NCBI GenBank assembly: GCA_030265395.1
Contig: JARFYF010000053.1
Location: 24,213,876 to 24,277,875 of the forward strand
Direction of reading: 5' to 3'
DNA length: 64,000 nucleotides
Source of the DNA: Rhina ancylostomus
Taxonomy: Eukaryota
Shown: positions 4,273 through 64,000 of the stretch, one piece after another
How the letters are laid out: every line of letters starts with the position of its first letter
How positions within the stretch are numbered: the first letter of the stretch is position 1
The notes under the pieces: generated by a model
The model's input: the letters and a program-made list of their open reading frames with translations, nothing else
What the model was told of the DNA's origin: nothing
The model's database searches: none
Position numbers and translations under genes: made by a program

Positions 4273-5554
4273 CATACTTATTTTACAAATTTGACCAGCT
4301 GTGATATGACTTTATATTTTTCAGACCAGTGCTTCACTCTCTCAGATTCCAAGCCATTACTCTTGTTTTAAGTGGTTGTTCTTTTGGAGTGCATTACAGC
4401 TGGCAAACACTGATCTTAATCAGTAACCTCCAGTACATGTTTTATGCCGTGCTCCTAATGAGTGATTTACCATAATCACTAGCTGGCAAGTAGAGACAAA
4501 AGTCTGTGATTATGCAATAAATTAATCTCAGGAAGAAAATACAATTTTATATGCATGATAAAGCAATGGGTAACTATGGTAATTGAAAAATAGAACTGCA
4601 AATGCTGGAAACCTGAAATTAAAAAAAAACAAATATGTTGGAAATACTCAGCAGGTCAGGCAACATCAATGTAAAGAAATACCATTTTAGATTGAAGACC
4701 CTTCCTCTGGCTTCAATTTTAGCCATGAACAATGTGTACTCCTGTTGGGAAGTTGTTAAATTCTCATTTGGGTCAACAGATTTCTAGATATTAAAAGATA
4801 CAAGGGATGGGAGAATAGTTCAGGGAAATGGTGCTGAAGTAGAATGTTGCCAGGATTTTGTTAAATAGCAGAGACTGGAGAGGCTGAACGTCCTCAATCT
4901 GCTCCTGCCTCTTGTATCCTTTTCACTGTTCAGTAAATACACAATTTTGTAAAAGTTTTGGTAAAGAAATTTGAATTTAAGAAAACATCGGTAGGTATTG
5001 TGCTGGTAATGTAGGTTCCACCGCTTTTAACTGATTTAACTATGTAGAAAAGTAAAGCTTCCATGCAGATCACATAAGTTAAAACAGGTTGGTGTTTTGT
5101 GTTTGGTTGCTGCCATCTAGTGGATTTTGTCCTTATTCAGTTCATATTATAAATTGAACCAATATTACTGAGCTGAATTTGACGAAGTGGGTAAATGTTT
5201 TATCTGGTTTCTGTTACTAGGACACATCCTCAAATAGAAAAGGACAGTATTAAACTAAGTTAAGTGTACAAGGTGTCAGGGGCATTGACCTTCAGAAATT
5301 ACAGAAAGTAATTGCAATTTGCAGTTTTATTACATCAAAAGATTCCTGTACAGGATAATAAGGTCTATTAACAATTTGTCTCTGAATACATACCTCCAAA
5401 CAACTGCCTTCACTTTAGGTCTCCACTATTGTACTGAAATAGTAGTCAGCACATGGTTAAAGAGCTTTTGTTGTATAAATGGCTTGCTATATTAATCTGA
5501 TGCAATCCACTTTAAGATTTCAAGATTAGATACATGATTAGTTAGATTAGCTGA

Positions 5555-5605
5555 GTAGATAGAGACACAAATAGAGAGACAGCTGGACAGATAGATAGAC
5601 AGATA
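5555..5605. repeat. Degenerate (AGAT/AGAC)n microsatellite
   Basis: agatagagacac..acagatagatagacagata. Confidence 0.5.
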
Positions 5606-5607
5606 AC

Positions 5608-5950
5608 AGTGGCAGCATAGTGGCTCATCTGCTGCTTCACAGCTCCAGTGACCCAAGTTCAATCTTGAACTCAACTGCTGTCTGTGTGCAGTTTGCTTGT
5701 TCTCTATATGTCTGTGAGAGTTTCCTCTGGGTGCTCCAGTTTCCTCTGACATCCCAAACACTTGCAGGTCAGGAGACTAATTAGCCTGTGTAAATTGCCC
5801 CTAGTTTGTAGGTGAGTGGTTGAACCTGGGGAGAGTTTAAGGAAATGTGGGGAGATTAGATTACAAGGAAAATTAGTGAGAAATGGACTTACTCAGTGAG
5901 CTAGCATAGACTTGATGGGCCAAAGAGTCTACCATCTATGTCATAAAGAA
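5608..5950 (+). mobile_element. tRNA-derived V-SINE (HE1-like)
   Basis: tRNA-like head with gttcaatc B-box, V-domain gtttcctctgggtgctccagtttcctc, LINE-like tail gatgggccaaag. Confidence 0.75.
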
Positions 5951-7596
5951 ATATTAAAATTGAAGGTAGGATCCTATTTTACTGCAGTTTTATTGCCTGC
6001 ATATCATCAGAAGATTCCTGTACAACATAATAAAATCTACTGACAATTTGCAATATTAAAATGGTTAGTATCCCAATGCTACTGAATGTTTTTATCATGC
6101 AGAAGAGTTTCTAGTCATCTGGACGAGTTGAACAAGCGTTCAAAATTATTCATGTATTCAGTTCCTTGATGTAAATTGAAACAGCAGATCACTGAATGTT
6201 GTGGTAATATGAACTTGTAGTTTGCAAGGTTTAAAATTGTACATTATTAAAAATGCTAAATACCTGCATTTTAAGTTCTTTTTTTATTGCTTTGATTGTT
6301 TCTAATTTGATACCTTTTATCTGACACAAAGATGATGGACTTAGTGGCCTTACTCTGCTACAAGATTTTCTTCAGTTAGGCCAATTACTCACACTGGAAA
6401 CAGATTATCTTCATGAACAGATACTTACAAAATAGTGGAGCAATTTACTAACATCATTACTCTTCAAAAACATGTTAAAATTCCCAATTACTCCCAACTA
6501 TTCATAACTTCAACATACCATGTAGATTTAAGTTATTATCTGTATTTCACCAAATTCAAATATGTCAATAAAAAATCTTTTAAGTGATATGTATTTTGGC
6601 ACATTTCAGTATCTTTTAATTTTACACTTGCAAATAAATTAACTTGGTTCATTTTGTATAAAAGTCATGTTGAAATGTTATATTTAGTACCCTCAAATTT
6701 TGGACCAAGGGTCTTGTGTTACTCTCCTGTTGCTTGAAAAGGATTATAAGTTTTACAAGCAGGTAAAATGAAAAGATTAGCCAAAGTATGCGTGTATCTC
6801 AGAAGCAGAGTAGGAAGATACCATAATGGGGAATAAACAAGTGCCGGGGCAAAGGCCTAAGCATTGTTGGAGTGGTTTCTCAGGCACACTTCACTCTTAC
6901 TCTGGGTCCCTAGTTAGTTCCAATCTGATTGGCAAGGTCGAAAACTACACAGGGCTTTGCAATTGTAAATCTATAAGGAATGTCCTTGAGCTGAACTGGA
7001 TGTCAAAACTGTCAAGAACTTGAATTGTCATAAATATCTCTGACATGTGAATGTCTTTGGTACAAGCAAAGATAGTGTAAAGCATGGTGATGCCACAAAG
7101 CTAGGTGGAAAAAGTAACTGAGAGGAAGACATAAAAAGGCTTCCGAAAGAATGTAAACTGGTGAAGTAGATTCTCAAGTCCATAATCTTTTCTCAATAAA
7201 GTTTCTTAATTCACATCCATCCTTTCTGTGTTCTAAATTTGTCACAATATTTAAGAGGGAATTAGATAAACAGAAAGAGAAATGAGTTTAAATAGCTCAA
7301 ACATGAACCTGGAAAGTGAATGAAGTTATTTCTTTGTGTAATGAAACTTCAGTCTTTTGATCTGTGATTGTTTATGGATTAAGGAAAACCCATCGTGATT
7401 CAAATACATTGAATGACCTGAAGTTCCTGCACTTGTAATCTAGATACAGAGTAAATTTGCCAGAAAATGTCATTTCAAGTATCCTTTCAATGATGTGGCA
7501 AGTGTTGATTACTGTCAGTCTGGCACTAAAAGTGATCCATTGCAAGACGAGTCTCTTTCATTATCATAGAAACAATGAGACAGGAGAAGGTCATTG

Positions 7597-7898
7597 GAAT
7601 TTAATATTAAGTATGATACAGAAAGAGAAATAGAAAGAGAAATAAAATGTGAATTTGAAGTGACGAATGATAACTGTCACAGCCATAATGTGCAGGTCTA
7701 TTGTATATCATGTAGCAGGTACATGTAGCATTAATCTCCCGTCTAATTTTGGTTAGCAGATTAATGCTACATATACCTGCTACATAATATATGATAGACC
7801 TGCACATTATGGCTGTGACAGTTATCATTCATCACTTCGAAATCACATTTTATTTCTCTTTCTATTTCTCTCTCTGTATCTTATTTAACATTAAATTC
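7597..7898. repeat. Long inverted repeat: 141-bp arms (7597-7737 and 7758-7898), 20-nt spacer
   Basis: Arm-to-arm comparison by eye gives about 11 mismatches and no indels. Confidence 0.95.
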
Positions 7899-8329
7899 AT
7901 CCTTCACCCTTAGTCATTGTGTGGCCAGTTTCATGATCCTTTGATCTAATTGGTTGAGAAGTTGCAGCCCTGTTTACACAGATCATTGGTTTATTCCAGA
8001 ATGTAGAATGATGTTTCTATCTTTCCCCTCCAGCAAATTCTAGTGGAAAATATTATGGCTGTTAAACAGACAAGCTTACTCCTAAAAGTTCAAATGTCCA
8101 GTTATACCTTTGATCCATTTTACATCAAAAATGTGCTAAAAGAATGTCTAAATTCTAATGCTTACCACATGTGTTCAAAGAGCATTATAGTTAAACAAAT
8201 CTTAGCACCCCAGACTAATATGCTCAGCAGTGATTACAAATTGCTGAATTTCAGGCAACCTTGAGGAAATAGTAATATGACAGACAAAATTCAACAGGTC
8301 TTGACTTTTTAAAATGCTGGTGTGGCCTC

Positions 8330-9120
8330 ATCCAGAATATTATGTTCAGTGCTGATAGCCTCATGAAAGGAAGAGTGCGGAATCATTGGAGAGAGTTCAG
8401 AGGAGCTTTCCAGGAATGGTTCCTGGGATGAAGGACTACAGTTACAAGGATAAATGGGAGAGGCTGGGACTTACTTTAGGTAAGGTTAAGAAAGATTTGA
8501 ATGTGCTATATAAAATAATGCAGATACTGGACTGAGTGGACAATAGAAAGTTGTTCCCATTGATGTAACAATTGAGGACTATGATCACAAGTAAAAAGAA
8601 ATAAGAGTATAACTTTTATGCAGCATTTGGTTGGAATCTGGATTGCACTGCTTACATCTGAGGTGAGGCAGCATCTATCATTAAGGACCCTCACCACTCA
8701 GGACATGCCCTCTTCACGTTACTGCCATTGGGGAGGTACAAGAACAAGAAAACTCACACTCAACAATTCAAAAACAGCTTCTTCCCCTCCACCATCAGAT
8801 TTCTGAATGGTCCATGAACACTACTTCATTATCCCTCTTTTGCACCATTTATTTATTTTAGTGACTTACAGTATGTTTTGCACTGTACTGGTGCCACAAA
8901 ACAAATTTTGCAACCTATGTCAGTGATAATAAACCTGATTCTGATTCCACAGTGACCTTTAAAAGGGAATTAAATAAATATATGATGAAAAAATATTTGC
9001 AAGGCCCTGAAGAAGGGTTCAGGGGAGCACTAGGCAATGGAACTAGTGAGCTGCTGTGGTAGAGCTGGCATGGACACTGCGTTGAATGACCTTCTCCTGT
9101 GCTGTAACCATTCTTTGATT
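8330..9120 (+). mobile_element. CR1-type LINE 3' fragment interrupted by a Rex1/Babar-like insertion
   Basis: ggagagagttcagaggagctttccaggaatggttcctggg ... gaatgaccttctcctgtgctgtaa. Confidence 0.65.
8665..8948 (+). mobile_element. Rex1/Babar-like LINE 3' end
   Basis: Decayed KDPHHSGHALFTLLP...FKNSFFPSTIRFLN and tail aataaacctgattctgattc; minus-strand tails at about 47914-48060 and 56205-56470. Confidence 0.65.
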
Positions 9121-10101
9121 CAATAATTTGTTCTACGATTCTTCTGTAATATAAATAGAAAACATTTCATTCATGAGGGACTGCTTGCAATTACTTCACT
9201 AAGGTCCTGGATGCATAAAGGTGTGGGTGTCATATGACCTCCAACAGGAAAACAGGGAACCTCTCAACCTTGCAAAATATGTTGTTCAATCAATAGGCAC
9301 ATAGCTCCTAAAATGAGTCATATAAGTATTTGTATTACCCAATGCACTACATATTAATGATTTCTGATATAACCTTAAAGTGTCATTCTCTGAGATTAAA
9401 TTAAAATGGATCACTGTTTGTATTGAAGATATCAGTGTTTTGATAATTGTGCATTAAGAACAAGGATTTCCCTTTGTTCAAAACATCAGTCCTCTTAGTG
9501 GTGCTTATACTCAAAGAATGTTCTGTTACTCTTACAACTTCCATGTCTTAACATTAAGAATAAATGTCAACAGTAACAATGAGGAAGTTATCTGACATGT
9601 CTCGTTTGAGAACAGGCCCATGAATTGTAATCCCAACTTTCAGTCCTGGCCCAGTATAAGTAAGAAGTGGAGAGGACTGAGAACAACAAAGTTTAAAAAG
9701 ATGTTAAGCAGATTTGGTGGTTTTGCACCTGTGACAATGACTGGCATATGATTGCAAAAGAGTTTGCCATTGCTCAGTTGGTAACACTCCTCCCACACCC
9801 ACCCCACCCCACCCCCCCGACTCAATCCCATTCCAGAACATAGAAATCTTGCCAAAACTCAGTGCAATGATGAGAGAGTGTAGCATTGTTGGAGAGGTGC
9901 TGTCCTTCAAATACTTAAGTGTATGTGCAATTATCGAAACAATAACATTCTTCAATGCAAACACAGTGATCCATTTAAAATTATTCTTCAAGGCTTTATC
10001 GGAAATAGTTTCATAAAATCTGATAGTAAATATATTACTTTCTTTCAATTAACAGCTTTGAACTATAATCTTTTGAGGAAGTTGAAAACGAGAGACAAAC
10101 C

Positions 10102-51214
<41,113 letters not shown>

Positions 51215-51499
51215 AGCAGCTTTGCAGAGAGCTTTGATGTTTTTAAAAAGGCTAACTGGATGGAAAAGACATTAGGCCACATCATTACCACAGGTCATTT
51301 CTGAGTATTATATAACAGTATGACAAATTGTGAGTTGTTCATCAATTCAACTGCAAAAAGCATAAAGAAATAAGCAAGAAATAAATTGCACTGGAAGAAT
51401 TGTAAAATGTGCATTCAAGATAAGCACAAAACTTTGTTTTACACTTTGTTGTGTCATCTTTTGACTAATGATTATTTTGTCAAAGTTGTTCTTTATTCC

Positions 51500-51546
51500 A
51501 ATAAACAATATTTCATTTTCAGTAGTATTAAGATAGCAAAAATAAA
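51500..51546 (+). terminator. Candidate IGFN1 polyadenylation signals (AATAAA at 51500 and 51541)
   Basis: Hexamers about 300 nt after the predicted stop; which one is used cannot be determined. Confidence 0.35.
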
Positions 51547-52364
51547 TTCTGTTATTAGTCACCAATGTTTCCTTCAAGCTGTGCACTGCCAATTCCATGA
51601 TTGTGTTTCTTCAAACCAGAGATATATGCAGACCTACACTTGAGAATACTTTATTATACTTTGCTGCATTAAATAGTGAAGCTTAGTATATTTAATGGTT
51701 ATAAAGCTAGAAGTGTGTTCACCTTTGTTCATAAAACGAGCCATTTCATTTCACCATGTCACAAGGCTGAAAAGAAGGCAGTTCCTGTTAATTGGACTGT
51801 GTTGCGCTACTGATATTGTCCTTGCTTGTGAGAAAAGAACAAATTTAAATACAAATGTGCAAAATAGTTAAAACTTATTCAGACTTCATGAAAATATGCT
51901 TTTATGTTGTTTATTGTGGTGTGCAAATTGTTCTAAGTTAAATCTTCCAAGAGTGATCATTATTGCTAGAAATATTATTTTCACATGAATTTAAATTCTG
52001 CTGTTACACTTCAAGTTTAAAGTTCTGTTTATGTTCTTAATTTCTCTTTGCTGAATCATAGAAATAAAACATTTCAACCTGCAATGTTGATATTCATGAC
52101 CCATACAATACTTTAATTTTGTATTACATTTTTCTAGTATTAGTAGTTTTGTGTTAAGATGACCCAGGTAACCTGTTTATTTTCTTTAGTTTCCATTAAT
52201 ATTCTATACAAGTGCTGTTATAACGTGATGTTATAGTCAGAGTGACTTGTATTTGGTGTGTGCCAGATGCAAGGCATGTTTATGGTTACAAATAACTCAA
52301 AGTTAGAGGTCAAAATTTCTAAAAATAATCAATAACTCTGAAGTGGAATAGGAATAAATAGACA

Positions 52365-54270
52365 CCGAAGCAGGAATAGACCATTCAGCCTGTTCTGCAT
52401 GTTTTCCATTTGATAAGATTACAGCTGATTTCTTATTTCAGTGCCATTTTCCTGTGCTTACCCCATATCCCTTGATTCCATTCATTTCCAAAACTCCATC
52501 CAACTCAATATTGAATATACTCAACAACAGGCTTCATAGCTGTTACAGGTGGAAAATCCCAAAGATTCATGATTTGTTGAGTGATTTTTTTTTTCACATC
52601 TGCCAAATATTGCTGACTTTGAGAATGTGACACCTGGTTCTAGATAACTTAGCCAGGGGAAACAACATCTCTGCATCCATCCCATTGAGCCATGTAAGAA
52701 CTTCATTTGTTTCAGTGAGATTGTCTCTCATTCGTCTAAACCCTGGAGAGTATAGACCCAGTCTGTTTAACCTTACAGGACAATCCTGCCCACCATTCTA
52801 AGAATCAATCTGCTTATCCTTCAGTATGCTCCCTCTGCTGCAACTGTATAATTCTATGAGTAGGGAGAACAGACCTGCACACAATATTGCAGGTACTCTA
52901 TCTAATTGCAGTCGGACATATTGGAAGAGGATTTGAGCACAAGAATAAATAAAGGCCGAATGCCATTTGTGTTTCCAATTGCTTATTTACCTGCATGCTA
53001 ATTTTCAGTGATTTGTGTACAAGGACGCCAACATCTCCCTTTGCAGTAACACTTTTCAATCCCTCACCATTGAAAAATCAAATTTCTATTTTTTCCATCA
53101 AAGTAAATAACATTTTCTCACATGATATTCCAGCTTTCATGTCCTCAAGCATTCACAGCCCATCTCTAACCCTTTGAAGCCTCTCTGGATCCTCCTCACA
53201 TCCCATGTTGCCACCCAAATTTGTATCATCAGTAAACTTGGAGATACTTTGCAAAAGGCAAAGACAACCTGCAGCTGCTGGAAGTCTGAAATTAAAACAG
53301 AAAGAGCCAGAGATACTCAGCAGGTCTGTAGACACAGAAGCAAGAGTTAATGTTTCAAGTTAACAACCTTTCATCAGAACCCTTTTGTTCCCTAACCTAC
53401 TGAGTATATATACCATTTTCTCTTTCTACTTCTGATATATTACACATGGTCCTCTTGAGGACTGGACTTAACTGAGTTGTTTGATGAAGTGATCAAGAAG
53501 GTCGATAAGGGTAAGGTGGTAGATGTAGTCTACAGTTAAGGCCTTTAATAGGGTTCCACTTCATTTAAATAAATGTTTGCTTTATGATTTTACCTTCCAA
53601 AGTGGATAAACTCACATCTTGCCACATTATATTCCACATGTCAACTTCTTGCCTGTTCACTTAACATGTCTATATTTATTTGCAAGCTCTTTGCATCACA
53701 ACTTGCTAACTCACCTATTTATGTTGGAATGTTGGGTTAAATTTCTGGTTTTCCAACCCCTCTGAACGTCTCCAGAATCTAATTAATTTTGGCAGAGTAC
53801 AACCAATGCATTTACTATCCCTGCAGCTAATGAAGACCCTAGCGTGCAGCCCACCAGAGCCAAGGGATCTCAGACAATAGTAGTTTGGCCTGTACTTCTC
53901 TACCGTTAGAGGTTGCTTTAAATTTCTATTCCCTATTAATCTCCTTGATTATCTATTACTTGGATGTTTATAATGAAGAACAAAACAAAATAATTACTTA
54001 GAATCTCTGCCATTTCTCCATTCACTATTATTAATTCCCAGTCTCATCCTCTAAGAAATTAACTTTAGTTAATCTCGTCCTTTTTACCTACTCTGGAAGC
54101 GCTTCCTGCTTGTTTTTATATTGTTAGTTTAGTCTCACACACTTGTTTTCCCAGCTATATTGGTTTCTTTCAGTCCTCCTTTGCAGATTACTAAAATCGT
54201 CCCACTCCTCTGGCCTACCCCTGCTCTTCACAGAATTTTGCCTTTTCTTTCCATGTAACACCATTCTCGC
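52365..54270 (-). mobile_element. Degenerate CR1-type LINE(s) with a nested Penelope hairpin (53252-53435)
   Basis: ORF track SISKFTDDTNLGGNMGCEEDPERLQR at 53153..53335. Confidence 0.75.
53342..53384 (-). ncRNA. Minimal type I hammerhead ribozyme motif with an intact CUGAUGA/GAAA core
   Basis: AAGGGUU-CUGAUGA-AAGGUUGUUAACUU-GAAAC-AUU-AACUCUU: 7-bp stem I, stem II, NUH triplet. Confidence 0.62.
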
Positions 54271-54439
54271 GTGTTGATTCCTTCAGCACACAGGCTGCGT
54301 TGGCAATTTTGCATTTTACATTGATTTAATTCTATTTTACTCATTGTTTCCGCCGTGATTTCAACCTGGTTTCAGCAAGAATCGTATAAGAGTTAAAACA
54401 CATGTGGAGAACGTTCTGATTTTTATTATTTGTAGCGTC

Positions 54440-54955
54440 ACAATTCAGGTTTGTGATTGGTTCGTGTAAAACTGGGTGTCCTCGCATGATTGGCAGAGGT
54501 AGCTGTCAAACAGTGTCTTGCCTCTGACTGGGCGCTCCCCGTGGTTCCGCCTCCTACCGACTTGGAATCGGCTGTCAATCAGGTTAATTTCCAATCCACG
54601 GGCGAAATAGTTGGAAAAGTTTTAGAGAAGTTTGTAACAATGAGAAGTCGGAAGGGGAAAAGCGGCCAGCGGGGCGAAGATAACTCTGTCCGGGCTGATG
54701 GTAAGGATGTGTCCGACTCTGCCCCCGCCTCGGCCGGACTGGCCATTCTGTGGGCTCTCCTGCTGTTCTTGGTGGTCGCTTGTGGGGTTGGCGGCTGGTA
54801 CATTCAGCAGCAGCTCGGCACCATCGGCAGCCTGGATCAGACCATTCAAATCCTGCAGAAGAAGCTCTCTCAGCTCGAAACGATCCATTCTCAAGTGAAT
54901 GAGCTGAACGAGAAGGTACGTCCCGACCTGGGGCCTCGGGGGGGGGGGGGGGGGG
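54440..54955 (+). promoter_or_regulatory. CpG-rich promoter and first-exon region with CCAAT boxes and a GC-box-like motif
   Basis: Local CpG enrichment in an otherwise CpG-depleted window; ATTGG at 54456 and 54489, CCAAT at 54591, CCGCCT at 54547. Confidence 0.7.
54640..54915 (+). CDS. IKBIP/CKAP4-like type II membrane coiled-coil protein, exon 1 (basic N-tail, transmembrane helix, start of coiled coil)
   Basis: acaATGa start; MRSRKGK...LAILWALLLFLVVACGVGGWYIQQQ...VNELNEK|gtacgt. TM-W-xx-QQ followed by an exon ending in EK resembles IKBIP exon 1 as recalled. Confidence 0.8.
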
Positions 54956-55168
54956 NNNNNNNNNNNNNNNNNNNNNNNNNNNNNNNNNNNNNNNNNNNNN
55001 NNNNNNNNNNNNNNNNNNNNNNNNNNNNNNNNNNNNNNNNNNNNNNNNNNNNNNNNNNGATTTCTAGACAAACCTGCCCAATATCTGACCAATAAACTGA
55101 CTTCAGATATGATGTGAAAGTCACTGCCATTGACTTCAAAGCAGGAGTTGATTTACTATAGGATTAAT

Positions 55169-55318
55169 AAACGTTGGAAACACTCAGCAAGTCAGGCAGT
55201 ATCTACAGAAATTGAAACAGCGTTAACGTTTCAGGTGGGAAAACTTTCGACCTGAAACATTAACTGTTTCTCTTTCCACAGATGCCGCCTGACTTGCTGA
55301 ATGTTTCCAGCATAGTTT
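55169..55318. mobile_element. Penelope-derived fold-back element with the ribozyme core deleted at the apex
   Basis: gaaacagcgttaacgtttcaggt-[13 nt]-acctgaaacattaactgtttc inside longer inverted arms. Confidence 0.75.
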
Positions 55319-55531
55319 GTTTTTATCTCCGATTTTGAGCATAGAATCATTAAATACCGAAACAGCACTTCGAGGTCAAAGCTATTTTAGTCTCCTCGTA
55401 TTCCCATTAATTTCTTCTCCATCCACTCCTTGATTCTACCCCGCACCGACTGCAGTTTTTTTTATTGACTGAGCATGGCATTGGGGAAAATCGAACTTAA
55501 TGGAAATCAAAGGGAAAGTTTAGATCAAGTC

Positions 55532-55622
55532 AAAAAACAAACTGCTGGAGGAAGTCAGTGGGCCAGGCAGCATCTGTGGAGTGAAATGGACAGTCGGCGT
55601 TTCAGGTTGAGACCCTTCATCC
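55532..55622 (-). mobile_element. Penelope terminal fragment with a truncated hammerhead motif
   Basis: Reverse complement reads GAUGA-AGGGUCUCAACCU-GAAAC-GCC-GACUG...acagatgctgcctggccc. Confidence 0.7.
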
Positions 55623-58600
55623 GCGTTTCCATTAGATCAAGTCAATCATAGCATGAAGGATTTGTTTGCTTCAGACTTATCTCCAAGCTGCAGGAGTTCC
55701 TTAATGCAGTGTCCTAGGTCCAGTCACGTGAAGTTGCTTTGTCATTGACCTTCCCTCTGTATGTAAGAAGGTGGGAATTTATGATGATACCATAGGGTTC
55801 AATTTTGACCCTCAGTGTTATGAAGCAGACTTGCCCTCGTACAGGAAGACACGGATGTTATTCAGACCTACAGACTCTCGCAATGGTTATAGTTCAGAAG
55901 AATACCATTCAGCTCATCAGGTCTGTACTTGCACTACATGTGTTGAACATAAAATGTTTCCTTGTGTCATTTTGATCAACATAATCTATGACCCCCTAGT
56001 ACTTGATCTCTCAGCCAATGGGGACAGTGTTTCTCTATCTATTCCTCATGATTTTTAAATACATTCATCAGTTCTCCTTGTAATTTATTCTGTTTCAAGG
56101 AGATCAGCCCCCATTTCTCCAATCCATCCACATAGCCAAGGTCCAACATCCTCTGGAATCTTGTTGGTAAATCCCTTCTAGGCCTTCCTCAAAGCACACT
56201 TAAATTGATAATTGATTTATTATTGTCACATGTACTGAGATACAGTGAAAAACATTGTCTTGCATGCCATCCATACAGATCATTTCAAAACATAAGTATG
56301 TCGAGGTAGTACAAAGGGAAAAATGATAATGATGCAGAATATAGTGTTACAGTTACATAGAAAGTGCGGTGTAGGTAGACGATAAGGTGCAAGGGCCATG
56401 ATGATGTAGATGTGAGATCAACAGTTCATCTTTATCACATAAGAGGTCCATTCAAGAGTCTTATACCAATGGGCCTTTTAACCAATCCAGGCTGGCTTTT
56501 CTCTATCCACCCATACTTGTCAAAATTACTGCTGATCCTATCCTTGCTTATTGCTTGTACTTCTCAGGTTTATCCCTGCGTGATTCATTTGAAAAGAGTC
56601 ATTTTGAAAAGATTCATTTGAAAAGAGTTAAAAGATTCATTTGAAAACCTGGAATTTTCCAGTCTGTGGACACCCTCCCTATAGATGTTTGGAAGATTGT
56701 GGAAGAGTTACTTCTCTTACTTTTCTCAGCAATCTGGACCAGATGATTTAACCAATTAAATGTGGCTAGCCTTTCTAGTACCACCACCCTATTAAATTTT
56801 TACCCCACCAGAATCTCAATTGCATCATCTTTGCTGAGACTTCATTGGCATTTTCATTGGTAAAGGCTGATGTAAATTACTTATTTAGTACCTAAGACAT
56901 GCACTCAGCTTTCACAAGTAAATTTTCTTCTTGGTCTCTCACTGGCCATTCCTCTCCTTTTACAACCCTTTTCCTGTACACATGCCTGTAGTTTGCTGCT
57001 TAACGGTACTATACACAAGAGAGAGGGAGAAGACAAAGGAAACTGACAACTAAGGAAGATTCGGACAACATCCTTGTGTAGCAGATGTGTCTCTGGGTCA
57101 TATCTTTCTACTTTAAAGAGTAATATATGCTATCTTGTTTTGGAGTTTTAAAAGAAAAATAACTGAAGAAAACGTTTACAGAAATAAAATGGACATTCAC
57201 AATTACTGCTATAAATGGAAGTTGTTCATCAGTCATTATAGAGTTTGATGTTGTCTTCTGGATCTCTAATCATTTGGATGTTGTTATTTAATTTGGAGAA
57301 CAATGCTAGTAATCTGTATTTCAGAAGTGTCCTTAAGCTCTGGAGTATTGCTTACATGTGTTTCATCTGTTTAAATAAGACAATGCTGAATACAGTGTCT
57401 TAGTGAACTTCCTACTTCCACATTAGACTCTAGCACCTGTAACTCTTGTTAGTGCAGCAGCACTCCAAATATTCCTTCCAATAAGCTCCACCTGGATGTA
57501 TCATTTGAAGTAGTCTTGTAGTGATACTGTGCATGATACTTCATACTGGTAAGAGCATATGCATTTTCCTCAATTGAATATTGAGGTAAAGGTAATGGTG
57601 TCTTGCACTTTCATCCTTTGAGTCTCTATGCAGTTCATCTACACTACATCTTCATTTGCCAGTCTTAACACAGCTAGAAACTTTTGATCCTACTCCTTGT
57701 CTTTCTGATATTGTTTCAGAGTTTTTCTCACATTTTCAATTTTGTCATTGGACTGCGGTGAGTAAAGTGATTGTGTCACATGCTTAAATTCCATAAATAT
57801 GCATGTTAATATTTTCACAAACACCACAGATTTTTCAGATGTAAACATCAGAATGTTTGACGACACAAATCTGGCATGAATCTATCGTAAGTTTTGAAAT
57901 GTATACAGAAAATACAAAACTCAGCATGTCAGGCAGCATCTGTGTGGAGAAAAGCAGTAAACATTTCAAATCGATGGCTTTTCTTCAGAATGGGACCAAC
58001 ATATTCCAAGTTGCAGAGGATGTGGATGACTGCAGAGGACAAAGGGAAATGTAAGAGCGTGAAGACCCAGAAAGACTGAAATGTAAATGATAGTACAGAT
58101 GGCTGAGAGAGGGTGGTGAAGTTGTCTTAGGATAGTGCATAACAAATGAAATAAAGCTGGTTATGGTATAAAGTTACTGAAATAATCACATGCAGGAAGC
58201 AGTTTAAGGTCACACAACTGGAAAGATCAATTTTAACCTCTGACTAAAGCCCAACAACTGTGTCATGATGCAATACTTTATTTTTACTTGGTGAATCAAA
58301 GATAAGTCAAATAAATATGACAATATTGTAATGTATATTTTAAGGTCTGCTAATATTTTGGGCCAATAGATTTAACCCTTTGAGCTATCAATGTTCATCA
58401 CTTACCTAATATAGGGATTCCTCAATTTATGAACAATGTACAAATTTTTGCCATAGTGCCATTGACTTTTTTGACTCTCTGTCTTCAACTTATTCAATTT
58501 TTCATTATAGTGAATAGTGAACCACTCTCCGCTACTGCGCCCAAAAAACCATAATGCATTTACGTAGCCAAATTATGTTCAGAAAGTTGGTTTGATGAAC

Positions 58601-59205
58601 AAGTCCCTTTTGTAAATTAAGAATGAGTTTATGGTTAATGGAAAAAGCACCTGACCTTTAAACATTAAACCCCTTCACTATGTTTCATCCCAATAAAATC
58701 ACTTGCCAATGACTTGCATTTAGGGTGTGCATGCCCTTAATCTCTCACGAGAAGATGGAGATCCTTTTTGCTGTTAATAGAATCCCACTATTCTGTTGTT
58801 CCCAGATGCATGGATAGCTTGGGACCATTGCTATAATGAAGAAGTGAAATGGAAAACATACTGTTCAGCCACAAAATTATGTTTTGCTTTTATTTCTCTG
58901 CTAGTTCGCTGCAGGTTTCTTTGAAGCTGATTTGAATTTTAATCATTTGGTGGTTGACAATGAATGAGGTTAAGGAAAACTGATATAGACTAATTTATAA
59001 ATATTTCACTATATTGATTATTTTTGAGAAATACATTGAGAATCATTGAGAAATTACAAAGTAAATGAAGCAAAAATATGTACAAAGTGGAAAAATATTC
59101 TACTTTTTATCAGTCAGTGCCTCCTTTATGGAGAACAAACAAGCTTAGTAAACTCATTTGTATTATTTCCCTCCTCTGAAAAAGATATTTCTCCTTTTAT
59201 TTCAG

Positions 59206-59831
59206 TTGTTGATCACAGAAGCTCACGAACAAAGGTTGCAGGATCTCGAGGTTACGTGGGCTGATTCTAAAAGGAAAATGGAAATGACAATGGAGGCCAT
59301 GGCACAGATCGAGTCAGCTAACCTAAATAGTAAGGTGGCTGTGCTTCAGTCAGAGATGGGTAAAAGCCTGAGTGAGCTCAGGAAGGACTTGCTCACAAAG
59401 AGCGACCTGGAGCACCTGGAGGATATGGTTGAAGTTCTTCGAGAAGTTGAGTTTGCTCGGGCAGAGCAGGAAGTTGCAAGTATGAAGGCTGCAACCTCCA
59501 AACTTGAAGAAAGTGTATATTCACTTTCTGCTTCATTTCCAGCTTTAACAGGTCGAGTTACAAGCCTAGAAGCAGAAAGGCAGGACCTTCAGTCTCTTCA
59601 GCAAAGTGCTGAGGACATCAACACAGTCAAAGAGTTAATGGACCATAGTCTGCCCTCCCTCTCCAATGGTGTGATTGCATTGTCAAAACAAGTAAACCAG
59701 ACTACCCAGGTGACTGATGTTATTCAGTCACAGTTAGCTCAGCATAGCAAAGAATTATCAGCCCTGAAAGACTTTGCATCTGATCAGCAAGTTGAGCACC
59801 TGTCCAGAAAAGAGGAACTGGAAAACATCAG
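59206..59831 (+). CDS. IKBIP/CKAP4-like protein, exon 2 (long coiled coil)
   Basis: ORF 59158..59892 with heptad character; acceptor ttttatttcag, donor ag|gtttat; phase 0-2. Confidence 0.85.
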
Positions 59832-60036
59832 GTTTATAAATGGTTTTTGCCGAGACAATTGGAAATTTGTGACTGAATACACTCAAAAGTGAAATATAAT
59901 GTTGAGAAGGAATATAGCACCGATGCTTAGTACTTTTGATGTATTTGATATTTTTGGATGCATTTGAGATCTTTGCGTTCTGCATAAAATGAGTACTGCT
60001 CAGGTAATGTCTTATTCCTTGCTGTCTCCATTCCAG

Positions 60037-60190
60037 GAAAATGGCCAATCAGTTGCAAGTGGAGAAGATCTCTATGGAAGAGCTGGAGAATGCTGTTCGA
60101 AGCATAATAACCAGTGATATCAGCGAGCTGCAAAGGAGAACTAGCAAAATGGATGAAATATTAGCCACTCTGCAGAATTATGTCACGAAG
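60037..60190 (+). CDS. IKBIP/CKAP4-like protein, exon 3 (KMANQLQVEK...LQNYVTK)
   Basis: ttccag|G AAA ATG...aag|gta; phase 2-0 fits both neighbours. Confidence 0.8.
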
Positions 60191-63100
60191 GTANNNNNNN
60201 NNNNNNNNNNNNNNNNNNNNNGTTTCTCAACTTGATCAGTTCTGATTAAAAACCTATTTCAAATTTGTCAGCATGTTTATTTTGGTACTGCTTTGGGATT
60301 GCTGATCTTCAGTTGACTATTGTCTGATCCAGGGTACATTGAGTATCTTCGGTGCAGTACAAAGTAAGCCGACTGAAACTGAGCCAACCTGGGCTTTTTG
60401 TCACCTAATTCTTAAAGATTTTGGATCAATGACTGAAAAACAAGTTGTGTGCACCTACTTAACTGGTAGTGGTCACTTCAAGAATTGTTCATAAATTGGT
60501 TGAGAAATGTAATCCCATAGTAACTAAAATGCCACAATATTTAAAAGCTGATATTTTGCCTAGTTATTTCAGACAGTGGAAGTGGCATTTGACCATTAGA
60601 TTCTGACAACCAATTTTCCAAATTAATTCAAATTTATATCTATTCTTAAAATACCAATTCTTTTCTACAGAGCATGCATGTCTGCAGTTCACCAATACTG
60701 ATTTGAATGCTGTAGATTCAGATCAGTGAGGCTTGTGTCTTGCTTTACATTTGACAGGTAGTCTCAGAAAAACCAGAAACTACCATGTGGTGACTATAAA
60801 TTTCCAAACTTGTAATTTGATAGATGGCAATGATTTGGTATTTTCTTGAATTTTAATGCTTTTAAAAAAAAGATTGAAATATGGTCCTTGATCAGTAGTT
60901 TCAAAAAACTTAGTATTGTAGCGCTGAGCATCATGTTCCTCTTTCAAAATTCAGTTCCATTAACGTCAATAGAACTAATTCTAAGTAGCAGGGCACATTA
61001 GCTAGCCACTATTACATTGCACATTTGACACAACCCAACTAGGATAAATTTATTCTTTAGAAATTATTTTCTGAAATGAAATTCTTATTCTCTTTTAACT
61101 TGAAAACCCGTGCTTTGAAGTTCAAATGTGTGAAAGTGGAAATTTGTATGTCGTATTAATTTCAGAGAGGCTTTCATTGTGAGAAATTCCTGGTTTGATT
61201 CAACAATGTGTTTTTAAAAAAACAAATCATCCTTCTGTCCTTAAGCTCACTGGAAGAGATATTCACTTCCTGATTCTTCACAAGTCAATGGACAAACTGC
61301 CACAAGGCAGTTTTGATAGTAGAGGCCATCGCATGGAATTCTTCGTGATGGAATTCACGATGGAAAGCATCGTGATGGAATTCTTCACTGTGCTTGTTTG
61401 TTGTGCTTTTTGCTTCTTAGAATTGCAAACTATTGTTTGGTTGCAGGACCTCAATTAATGTGTAGCTTGAGCAAAATGGCTGCTGGCTCTAGGTCTTCAA
61501 TAAGTTTTGGGTCTCTTCCATCAGTTTTTCCATCATTTCAATTAACTATTTGGAGGGTTTCAAACTTCTTTGAAGTAATTTTTTGGGTTCTTTGAGGCAA
61601 CATAATAGCATGGTAATCAATCTAAGAAGAATTCAGTTGATGTGCTCAACGCTTTGAGTTCAGCCAAGTTATTTCAATGAGAATTCTATCAATAAGGAAT
61701 GCATAATCAATGATCAATAATCAGCATTTAAAATTTATCTATAAGAAATGTAATTGTATGGAATTTACATAGATTGTTTAACATTTTATCAAATGTGATT
61801 CCCTAGAACTTTTATTTCCATGCCAGTGTTAAAAACAGGGATTTGCCAATTTCCCCATGAAAATCCCAGTTCCCAACACTGGCGTAGGCTTAATCTATTG
61901 GCAGCACCTGCCCCCCATCCTCCTGCTGCCAAATGGCTCTATGCTACATGGAGTGCAACTGGGCAGTGCAAACCTCTGCAGACTTTCTAGCTCTCAGACT
62001 GGGAAGCTTGCCCTCTGAGCTTAGTATGAGCATAGCAGCACCCATTAAAGTAACTGGGGAGTGTGGGTTGCTGATGAAAAGTAAGTAGATGTTGATGACG
62101 TCTGTTTTTTATTTGGTTTTTAATGTTTTTAACACTATTATAAAACAAGGAGCTTTGAACAAATTCATTCTTCCATTCACTATATTATCTTCTCAGTAAA
62201 CCTGGCACTGCAGTGTGCTTAGAATGAATTTACCTGGTTAATGTAATTTGGCATTATATGAGTTTGATAGACTGTTTGAATGGCCTCAGTGCACATTATT
62301 AAACAACACACAATATAAGAGCAAAACTGCAAAGCAAAGGTTTTCAAATAAAAACAATACAGACATTGCACTAAACTGTGGTTTCATACTGAATGTCTTT
62401 TTTGTGGATTTTTTGTTGTACAGGACGTAAGTCATATTACAGCAACTGCATTTAGATGCATATTTTGGTGATTCACTGCCAGGATTGAGATTCCTCCCAC
62501 TGACAATGAAGATGACTCTGTCCAAATGTGTTTGTGCAAGCATGTGGAACATTTTCCATTTGAGTCCAAGCCAACCACAATCTGAGTTTTTAATTTTCTT
62601 TAGCTTTCACATGAACTGTGCAAGTTATTGTCATGGTTGGCTTCACTCTGGACGTGAATAAGATGAGACAAGATAAATAGTACTTTCAGACACTTGCAGT
62701 CTTTGCTGATTTTACTAAAACCCTCTAGATTAGCATCTAATTTCACTCAAACTTCATNNNNNNNNNNTTTTCTATGACTTTAACACAATGGAACTAAGGC
62801 GTGGACCTGCATGTTAATTAGAACATTTCTTGGCAGTGACAGTGCAATATCAAACAACGACACTTCAAGCTACATAGCAACAGCATAATGTTGGAATTGT
62901 AGAAGTTAAGATAAACTATTAAAATCTAAATAGGAAATCATTAAAGAAAACTGAAATGACTGTGTATAATATAACTAACACCATCCAAACGAAACACACT
63001 CATGCTAATAATGACAAATCAGAAATCTTTTGCATCATCACTAGGTCATGCAGCCTTGAAATGTATAGCTCCACGTGTATAATATCTTGGCCCCTAAACA

Positions 63101-63235
63101 TGTTAGCACATTCAAACAAAGTAATCATGGAAGTGAGAGCAGAAGAAAATAGCACAAGTTGCGAGTAATGATTATTTGCATGCAAGTTCTTACAAACTAA
63201 ATGTATTGAAGCATTTATATTCTGTCTCTCTTAAG

Positions 63236-63356
63236 GTTGAAAGTAATGGGGCCAATCAAAATAAACAATTAGCAGATGCATTGAATCAAACCTTTCATAC
63301 TCTGCAAAAAACCTTGGGAAAAATTGAAACAAATCTCAAGAAGACTGTAGAGCAAT
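63236..63356 (+). CDS. IKBIP/CKAP4-like protein, exon 4 (VESNGANQNKQLADALNQTFHTLQKTLGKIETNLKKTVEQ); gene continues beyond the window
   Basis: tctctcttaag|...t|gtaagt; coiled-coil character. Confidence 0.75.
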
Positions 63357-64000
63357 GTAAGTATTGCCATATCACAGAGTATAATGAGTGCTACTGGCCA
63401 TAAGTAATCCATTTATCTCATTTTTGTCACCTTGGTTTTAAGTAAATATCTCTGCTAATTTTCTCCTCTTCTGCTGAAAGTACATTCAACGTGGATCCAT
63501 GGTTCCATTCTCCCTTCACTACCTTATCTACGTGCTTATTTTTATGTGTGGATCTTTGATAACCTATTCAACTCAGATGACTTTAATTTCATTCTCATCC
63601 CCACCACCTATTCAGTTTTTTCCATTATGACATAATTCAGAGGCTGTGAAGGCAATTGTAACAACCAAACATTGCACTGCCTGTGCTTAACCATTAGCAC
63701 AAGAGTTGATTTTTTTTTTGTTTGGCACATGTGGGGAGCTATTCTTCAGTCACTGGGGGAGCTTGCATTTGTGATTTCTTTTCAAATGAAACAGTCTCAT
63801 CCACACTGTTGTCTAACAAATTGAGATTCTTTTTAAATTAAGTGATATTAATTGCACAGAAAATTAGTTGAAAAGTATTTTTCCTAATAGGGAGCATAAT
63901 TATATTGTAGCTTTTGTAGCAGAAGTGAAGTGATGCTTTCAGGAGGAGAGGGGACAGCACATAAGTGGCTGAAAATAATGCGTAGCACTTATGTTTCAAA

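Follow-up and report, generated by a model that had tools for sequence, protein, structure and literature searches.

Short Penelope-type terminal repeats in a Rhina ancylostomus contig begin mostly at the 5′ foot of a hammerhead motif

We analysed a stretch of 64,000 nucleotides (nt) of genomic DNA from Rhina ancylostomus (assembly GCA_030265395.1, contig JARFYF010000053.1, positions 24,213,876 to 24,277,875), referred to below as the window, and within it a short dispersed repeat that most probably represents the 3′ ends of Penelope-like elements (PLEs). The window is eukaryotic, with 36% GC and 919 N, and a Pfam scan places fibronectin-3 and I-set domain exons in it. The original prediction, made from the letters alone, had named 15 ranges with a recurring hammerhead-centred block, many of them as head-to-head inverted pairs. 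Each of these ranges indeed has a match to a profile of the Penelope end, and one of them (41860-42620) holds two loci, which brings the number of loci to 16, namely 8 head-to-head pairs and 8 singles of a repeat about 100-135 nt long. They occupy 63 kb, a density of one locus per 4 kb.

The profile was built from 11 hand-picked copies of the repeat (arms), used as seeds, and searched against the window. It gave 31 matches, of which 24 had E<=0.08; 13 of these 24 were not seeds, and 12 of the 13 reached E<=2e-5, while the reversed window gave two matches with a best E of 5.8. For the counts below we used 24 arms: the match at 42203-42298 and seven matches with E>=0.21 were excluded, and a 22-nt arm recognized by eye (45352-45374) was included. 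Arms were assigned to subfamilies A and B by eye from alignments, and their 5′ ends were placed manually, C3 of CUGANGA being +1. Neither tandem arrays nor adjacent hammerhead pairs on the same strand were found among the 24 profile matches in the window, and pattern scans of viral contigs and of metagenome contigs gave 0 matches each. The loci, with pseudo-long terminal repeat (pLTR) ends, reverse transcriptase (RT) relics, upstream untranslated regions (UTRs) and target-site duplications (TSDs), are as follows; pairs are given without strand.

4588-4709 (-): profile seed, a single subfamily B pLTR end that has a tail and begins at about +1.
13228-13330 (-): profile seed, a single subfamily B pLTR end that begins at about -3, or possibly beyond.
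16816-16914 (+): single pLTR end, subfamily A, without tail; a 7-nt flanking direct repeat (not significant) overlaps both ends; profile seed.
20958-21066 (-): inverted arm, subfamily A, without tail; 5′ end about -3; profile E 5.9e-12.
21066-21319 (+): Penelope-type RT relic running from the inversion junction, with a stop and a frameshift in its first part and an internal deletion joining it to the pLTR end; E 2.7e-21 for 21125-21319.
21306-21398 (+): 3′ part of a pLTR with tail, subfamily A, one unit with the RT relic 21066-21319; profile E 1.1e-12.
26724-26846 (+): a single subfamily B pLTR end that has a tail and begins at about -2; profile E 9.9e-13.
32378-32670 (-): single subfamily B copy extending about 150-190 nt upstream into a pyrimidine-rich UTR; profile and alignment.
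33879-34082 (-): second, weaker RT relic (later RT motifs), without attached pLTR; E 0.0014.
36868-37090: subfamily B arms head to head, meeting at about 36968; one arm begins at about -2 and has no tail, the other begins at about +4 and has one.
39522-39695: head-to-head pair, subfamily B; junction about 39583-39585; 5′ ends about +30 and about -15 (ambiguous, small deletion); partial tail on the right arm.
41858-42066: head-to-head pair, subfamily A; junction 41935/41936; 5′ ends -4 and +1; 3′ part of the left arm lost.
42069-42622 (+): long 5′-truncated subfamily B copy with upstream UTR, a partial core duplicate (42203-42298), a hammerhead at 42506 and a tail.
45348-45505: subfamily A pair whose left arm is very short (about 22 nt, by eye); 12-nt TSD with one mismatch (45348-45359 and 45494-45505).
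47495-47737: best preserved of the head-to-head pairs, subfamily A; the arms meet at about 47600 and begin at -3 (without tail) and +7 (with tail).
47495-47507 and 47725-47737: perfect 13-nt TSD of the 47600 pair.
53252-53440: subfamily B arms head to head; the left one keeps an intact core and a tail and begins at -3, the right one is decayed (about +30 or later, profile E 0.08).
55168-55343: head-to-head pair, subfamily B; junction within stem II; 5′ ends about +6 (without tail) and about +15 (partial tail).
55520-55645 (-): profile seed, a single subfamily A arm that begins at about +2, with 9 extra nt and a perfect TSD of 14 nt (55520-55533 and 55632-55645).
57895-58160 (-): single subfamily B copy with intact core, extending about 150-170 nt upstream.

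Reverse transcription of this element appears usually to stop at the 5′ foot of helix I, just before the ribozyme. Fifteen of the 24 arms begin between -5 and +8, four begin further downstream and five further upstream; the downstream stop rate would place 0.79 arms in that interval, which corresponds to P of about 1e-17, or 5e-8 at a five-fold higher background, values that indicate scale only, as arms of one locus are not independent. Arms whose ends are fixed by a partner or a duplication behave in the same way (11 of 17). The inversion points had been described as falling repeatedly at or near CUGANGA..GAAAC, and at seven of the eight junctions at least one arm does end in, or just before, the stretch from CUGANGA to stem II; the pile-up, however, lies at the 5′ edge of the ribozyme and not at the cleavage site. 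The exception is the eighth junction (39585), whose arms end close to the cleavage site and at about -15, respectively. The comparison of breakpoints between loci that had been proposed gave a mixed result, as their distribution is strongly non-uniform but the junctions are not common to different loci. Only 2 of the 24 arms start near the cleavage site (+28 to +30), on which ground we rejected cleavage-defined 5′ ends; together with the pile-up at helix I, this argues that the RNA used as template for transposition was mostly uncleaved at its hammerhead. We also considered that copies keeping a splice acceptor might have been purged from host introns, and rejected this as a cause of the pile-up, since purging would not draw the ends together at a single position, and since 9 of the 15 clustered arms are minus-strand copies, antisense to the host exons.

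In the consensus of 15-16 arms a stem I triplet is followed by CUGAUGA, one extra A, a stem II of 4 bp and GAAA; then come a helix III position of 4 nt that is palindromic, the cleavage nucleotide and the partner of the stem I triplet, stem I being 3 bp long. The hammerhead motif is therefore conserved in the consensus, as originally proposed, and is predicted to be of the minimal type I described for PLEs in PMC4209133. Predicted stem pairs are present in 69% of 108 cells, compared with 18-54% for slid controls. The claimed covariation in stem I was not borne out, as against shuffles it was weak and not significant (covariation score 33/500, cells paired 96/500, pairs with two-sided change 15/500), and the inner stem I pair is UA in five arms, UG in two, CG in one and unpaired in seven. 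The difference between GUC/GAC and GUU/AAC is at best one change at the level of subfamilies, blurred by CpG decay; we read in this way subfamily A arms such as 41931, where GUC stands opposite AAC, and the public sequencing runs have about 25% change at the CpG of 47570-47571.

Most genomic copies of the motif are broken: the core is intact in 2 of 16 arms, which lie at separate loci, and disrupted in the other 14. An Rfam scan with E up to 5 detected no hammerhead; its matches were to miRNA-like hairpins and snoRNAs alone and fell short of the gathering score. None of six folded arms was better than shuffles (z from -0.66 to 0.47), as expected with short decayed motifs. We found no clear evidence for selection on the ribozyme in the genomic copies, since the core is as diverged (18 mismatches in 150, 12%) as the downstream block of subfamily A (34/281); it has fewer mismatches than the block of subfamily B (86/438, P=0.035), although the core count pools both subfamilies.

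The link to Penelope comes from the locus at 20958-21398, where a pLTR end is joined to a Penelope-type RT relic, in agreement with the Penelope origin proposed earlier. The peptide from 21140-21307 matches 408 representative proteins at E<=0.001, and among 12 relatives scanned 8 carry RVT_1 together with a C-terminal GIY-YIG endonuclease (EN). With a profile made from 15 long relatives, both relics that had been taken as traces of an autonomous partner were recovered, the first one solidly (21125-21319, E 2.7e-21) and the second more weakly (33879-34082, E 0.0014, the best match in the reversed control having E 2.4). The frame-shifted start of the first relic can be aligned by eye from about 21066, which is the inversion junction; the locus thus reads as a composite in which an inverted pLTR is followed by an RT fragment and, across an internal deletion, by a tailed pLTR end. 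A Pfam scan assigned no family to either relic, a word-based protein search with the RT relic gave six candidates, none significant, and searches of the window with the RT and endonuclease profiles gave no significant match to an endonuclease remnant. We rejected 42069-42160 as the end of the open reading frame or C-terminus of the endonuclease, as the resemblance was seen by eye alone, both profiles missed it and it scored below the reversed controls. Full-length relatives (P0013, P0014 and P0113), just 49-56% identical over about 50 residues, have a Zn-finger-like CxxC linker between RT and EN, a region that is absent from the window.

Sequence upstream of the repeat is retained at three single copies of subfamily B (32480, 42506 and 57988), which extend at least about 150 nt into a common pyrimidine-rich sequence; the match between 32480 and 57988 alone passed the shuffle control, and narrowly. 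The partial repeat core at 42203-42298 (E 1.9e-5) has no hammerhead; it runs in the same direction as the 42506 hammerhead, some 200 nt upstream of it, and may be an internal duplication in the UTR or a partial tandem. The weak RT relic at 33879-34082 and the subfamily B end at 32378-32670 are both on the minus strand; 1.2 kb with an assembly gap and LINE-like fragments separates them, and they may belong to a single interrupted element.

We then compared the two arms of the pairs and their flanks. Of 12 loci tested, 3 have duplications of 12-14 nt that surpass every one of the 132 controls with mismatched flanks, and two of the three enclose whole pairs (four loci with unclear outer edges were excluded from the test). 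A tail is present on exactly one arm in all seven informative pairs, both arms belong to one subfamily in 8 of 8 pairs (as judged by eye), and the eight pairs have eight different junctions, none in common. At 36968, 47600 and 55245 the arm that extends further in the 5′ direction has no tail, so neither arm contains the other and neither can be a copy of its partner. Simple fold-back of one complementary DNA (cDNA) is therefore excluded at these pairs, and the earlier suggestion of a recurrent fold-back product of Penelope reverse transcription was essentially right as to the RT product and wrong as to a literal one-cDNA fold-back there. We consider it improbable that the pairs in general arose by self-priming of one folded-back cDNA (or antisense RNA), with the hammerhead stems guiding the fold and subsequent trimming. 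Self-priming is argued for in PMC3846280; four pairs (21066, 39585, 45376 and 53380) have the tail on the further-5′ arm and are compatible with it, and several junctions can be read with overlaps of 1-4 nt, the stem I triplet at 53380 being one of these, yet the junctions mostly lack predicted pairing of stem strands. Two separately primed cDNAs would suit the pairs at 36968, 47600 and 55245 better, the remaining four informative pairs suiting either model. At 55623-55631, between the 5′ end of a single arm and its TSD, nine extra bases look like the GAAAC region of the element itself, directly oriented; a template jump possibly led back to a point just short of the cleavage site.

We also aligned contigs of four public runs (X1, X2, X3 and X7) to 47400-47630 at 80% likeness; 47,617, 45,781, 64,953 and 88,699 records were placed, respectively. 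Contigs break at repeats, depth is no measure of copy number and the window may itself derive from X1; with these limits the summed depth in X1 fell from 54,021 (47592-47599) to 212 in the following bin and 18 in the one after, the flank level being 8-35. X2, X3 and X7 show a similar collapse beyond the junction. This near-flank level means that the centre of the 47600 pair is not amplified. Among the 15 joints listed, 9 change strand and 6 'go back' (partial tandems); of the 9 opposite-strand joints, 8 are anchored on one side at 47597-47598 (-2/-3), their other sides scattering across 47546-47566, and the most populous has 12 contigs. Some of the listed direct 'goes back' joints have their junction at 47597-47599, so partial tandems elsewhere also use the helix I boundary. 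Loose ends past 47598 agree least with one another (0.34-0.38 in X2, X3 and X7, compared with 0.52-0.56 at 47553, past which another subfamily goes on), as would be expected if the sequence past -3 is for the most part unrelated. Their consensus has, on the sense strand, a CAG after a run of pyrimidines, which we take to be initiator-like or 3′-splice-site-like, both motifs being low in information; the subfamily B copies in the window have no clear AG. An assembly artefact was rejected as the source of the pairs, whose arms are just 82-83% complementary, and also because the left half of the 47505 locus occurs in contigs of X1, X3 and X7.

These data largely refute a dedicated hairpin, or retrozyme-like, family with a fixed centre that is amplified as a unit, possibly through circular RNA, which had been the first of two options named in the original prediction and which we now regard as highly improbable. 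It would account for the TSDs that bound whole palindromes at 45350 and 47505, for the hammerhead in the consensus and for the direct joints found genome-wide. Against it stand the eight differing junctions, the near single-copy depth past 47600 in all four runs, the small size of the opposite-strand joints listed, the 14 broken cores and the three copies that run about 150 nt or more further upstream. In addition, minimal hammerheads depend on a dimer according to PMC4209133, and the two of a pair, being on opposite strands, cannot form one.

We conclude that the repeats are most probably 3′ ends of EN-positive (EN+) PLEs of at least two subfamilies, each a pLTR with or without a tail, which were dead on arrival and have been decaying neutrally. 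Observed in the window are the repeat with its hammerhead consensus, the physical link to a Penelope RT fragment, the TSDs around whole pairs, the tail on one arm and the differing junctions. In the model we favour, the RT/GIY-YIG protein would nick both target strands 12-14 nt apart, and each nick would prime its own cDNA, one at the start site that gives a tail and the other at the site that does not. Most cDNAs would traverse the uncleaved hammerhead and halt at the 5′ foot of helix I, and the two cDNA 3′ ends would be joined head to head with little or no microhomology. As for the cause of the stop within this model, a template RNA that begins at the foot of helix I is the likeliest, with slightly better than even chances; a structural or protein block at helix I is a good deal less likely, and stem-guided joining somewhat less likely again.

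A monomeric non-autonomous unit is a further alternative that we think unlikely: a solo pLTR of about 130 nt, starting at helix I, would be transcribed and mobilized in trans by the Penelope RT in the manner of short interspersed elements, the pairs forming at insertion. The common 5′ boundary of 15 of 24 arms, the 45,781-88,699 contigs per run, the density in the window and the proposal that animal retrozymes derive from pLTRs (10.64898/2026.07.22.740005) all speak for such a unit. However, the one boundary is found in two divergent subfamilies, both of which have long copies (an RT relic in A; UTR at 32480, 42506 and 57988 in B), and internal initiation of RT on the autonomous RNA yields an identical product, so that the window cannot separate the two.

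Several points weigh against EN+ PLE ends with separately primed arms and a stop at helix I. The -5 to +8 interval was picked after seeing the ends, which were read by hand to about ±3 nt on copies 10-25% diverged, and the window offers no upstream reference for subfamily A. Nine of the 12 loci tested have no significant duplication, and the partner arm is the best match in just 2 of 8 pairs (ranks 1, 1, 2, 4, 4, 5, 7 and 21 of 23). In the contig data, the reference matches the family only up to 47598, so that contigs reaching this point all end there; the loose-end consensus is purine-rich on the plus strand and some copies continue into the UTR; up to 40 unaligned letters may lie within a listed joint, and there are 63 joints beyond those listed. 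Finally, PMC3846280 takes head-to-head palindromes as the outcome of self-priming on an antisense template.

The loci show the traits of EN+ PLE insertions, namely a link to a PLE-type RT, a hammerhead in the terminal repeat, an inverted truncated copy, a one-sided tail and a TSD. Inverted pLTRs, one-sided tails and palindromic junctions are described for such insertions in PMC3846280 and PMC8557442, which give a TSD and a tail at one end as PLE hallmarks. The complex insertions of Penelope/Poseidon, Neptune and Nematis reported there resemble ours in head-to-head layout, one-arm tail (30-40 nt there), TSD, 5′ truncation, internal deletion, solo pLTRs and RT relatives with C-terminal GIY-YIG; ours differ in being nearly all pLTR-only, very dense and piled up at helix I. 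PLE hammerheads in PMC4209133 are mostly single truncated motifs, with dual motifs on opposite strands in Schistosoma, and share with ours CUGANGA, the extra nucleotide, stem II, GAAA, palindromic positions 15.2-16.2 and a short helix I, which here, however, has about 3 bp as aligned, in copies that are almost all decayed. The same paper places the end of the Penelope intron of D. virilis at the 5′ end of helix I, the very spot of the pile-up. For PAc, the Poseidon element from Anolis, PMC11167929 reports cutting and extension of both target strands, two internal RT start sites that would explain the presence or absence of a tail, and hammerhead cleavage that is dispensable in vitro, uncleaved RNA being the main template, as argued here. 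The reading frame of PAc starts in stem II, whereas the relatives found here have the Neptune-like CxxC linker, and the available text of that paper contains neither a mapping of genomic 5′ ends nor a model of head-to-head joining. Metazoan non-LTR retrozymes (PMC7229834; 10.64898/2026.07.22.740005), reported in one chondrichthyan genome, are likewise non-coding and pLTR-related with a type I hammerhead, but form head-to-tail tandem units with a hammerhead in each and circular RNA, in contrast to the dispersed singles or inverted pairs described here, whose minimal cores are decayed; no tandem units with a complete hammerhead in each were found in the window, its two intact cores of 16 being at separate loci. 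A literature search by title and abstract start found no description of 5′-end positions relative to the hammerhead, subscription papers and supplements being outside its scope, so that absence is unproven; within the descriptions found, the pile-up at the 5′ foot is the one feature that goes beyond them.

Three other features of the window were noted. An inverted repeat at 7597-7898 (141-nt arms, 92% complementary, 20-nt spacer) gives no match to the Penelope-end profile and is possibly a miniature inverted-repeat transposable element or a fold-back of another element. At 28506-30314 (+), between Ig and Fn3 exons, an open frame of 602 codons carries a 33-nt tandem repeat (11 residues, rich in Gly, Lys, Asp and Met); we take it to resemble a low-complexity exon of an IGFN1-like gene. 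At 54490-63400 (+) open frames contain a hydrophobic stretch and long coiled-coil-like segments, presumably resembling CKAP4/CLIMP-63; the frame at 59152 has no significant Pfam family.

The layout of these insertions is already known for EN+ PLEs, and the family adds little to it beyond the annotation of a very abundant repeat. Its use is positional, as the many independent insertions allow the formation of inverted ends in PLEs and the role of their hammerhead to be tested by counting. Tentatively, and with some doubt, we suggest that the 5′ end of Penelope RNA in this lineage is the foot of helix I, either as a transcription start or as a 3′-splice-site-like CAG end after the pyrimidine tract. 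RT begun internally in the tail would then run off the template, giving a fixed cDNA of about 130 nt that is integrated as is, singly or twin-primed head to head. If so, this run-off cDNA would resemble retroviral strong-stop DNA, the many genomic junctions would form a nucleotide-level fossil map of the 5′ end of Penelope RNA, and they would be in vivo evidence that the hammerhead stays uncut during transposition. If the pile-up holds with a full-length reference, it would locate the template's 5′ end, speak against cleavage-defined ends and favour twin priming over self-priming.

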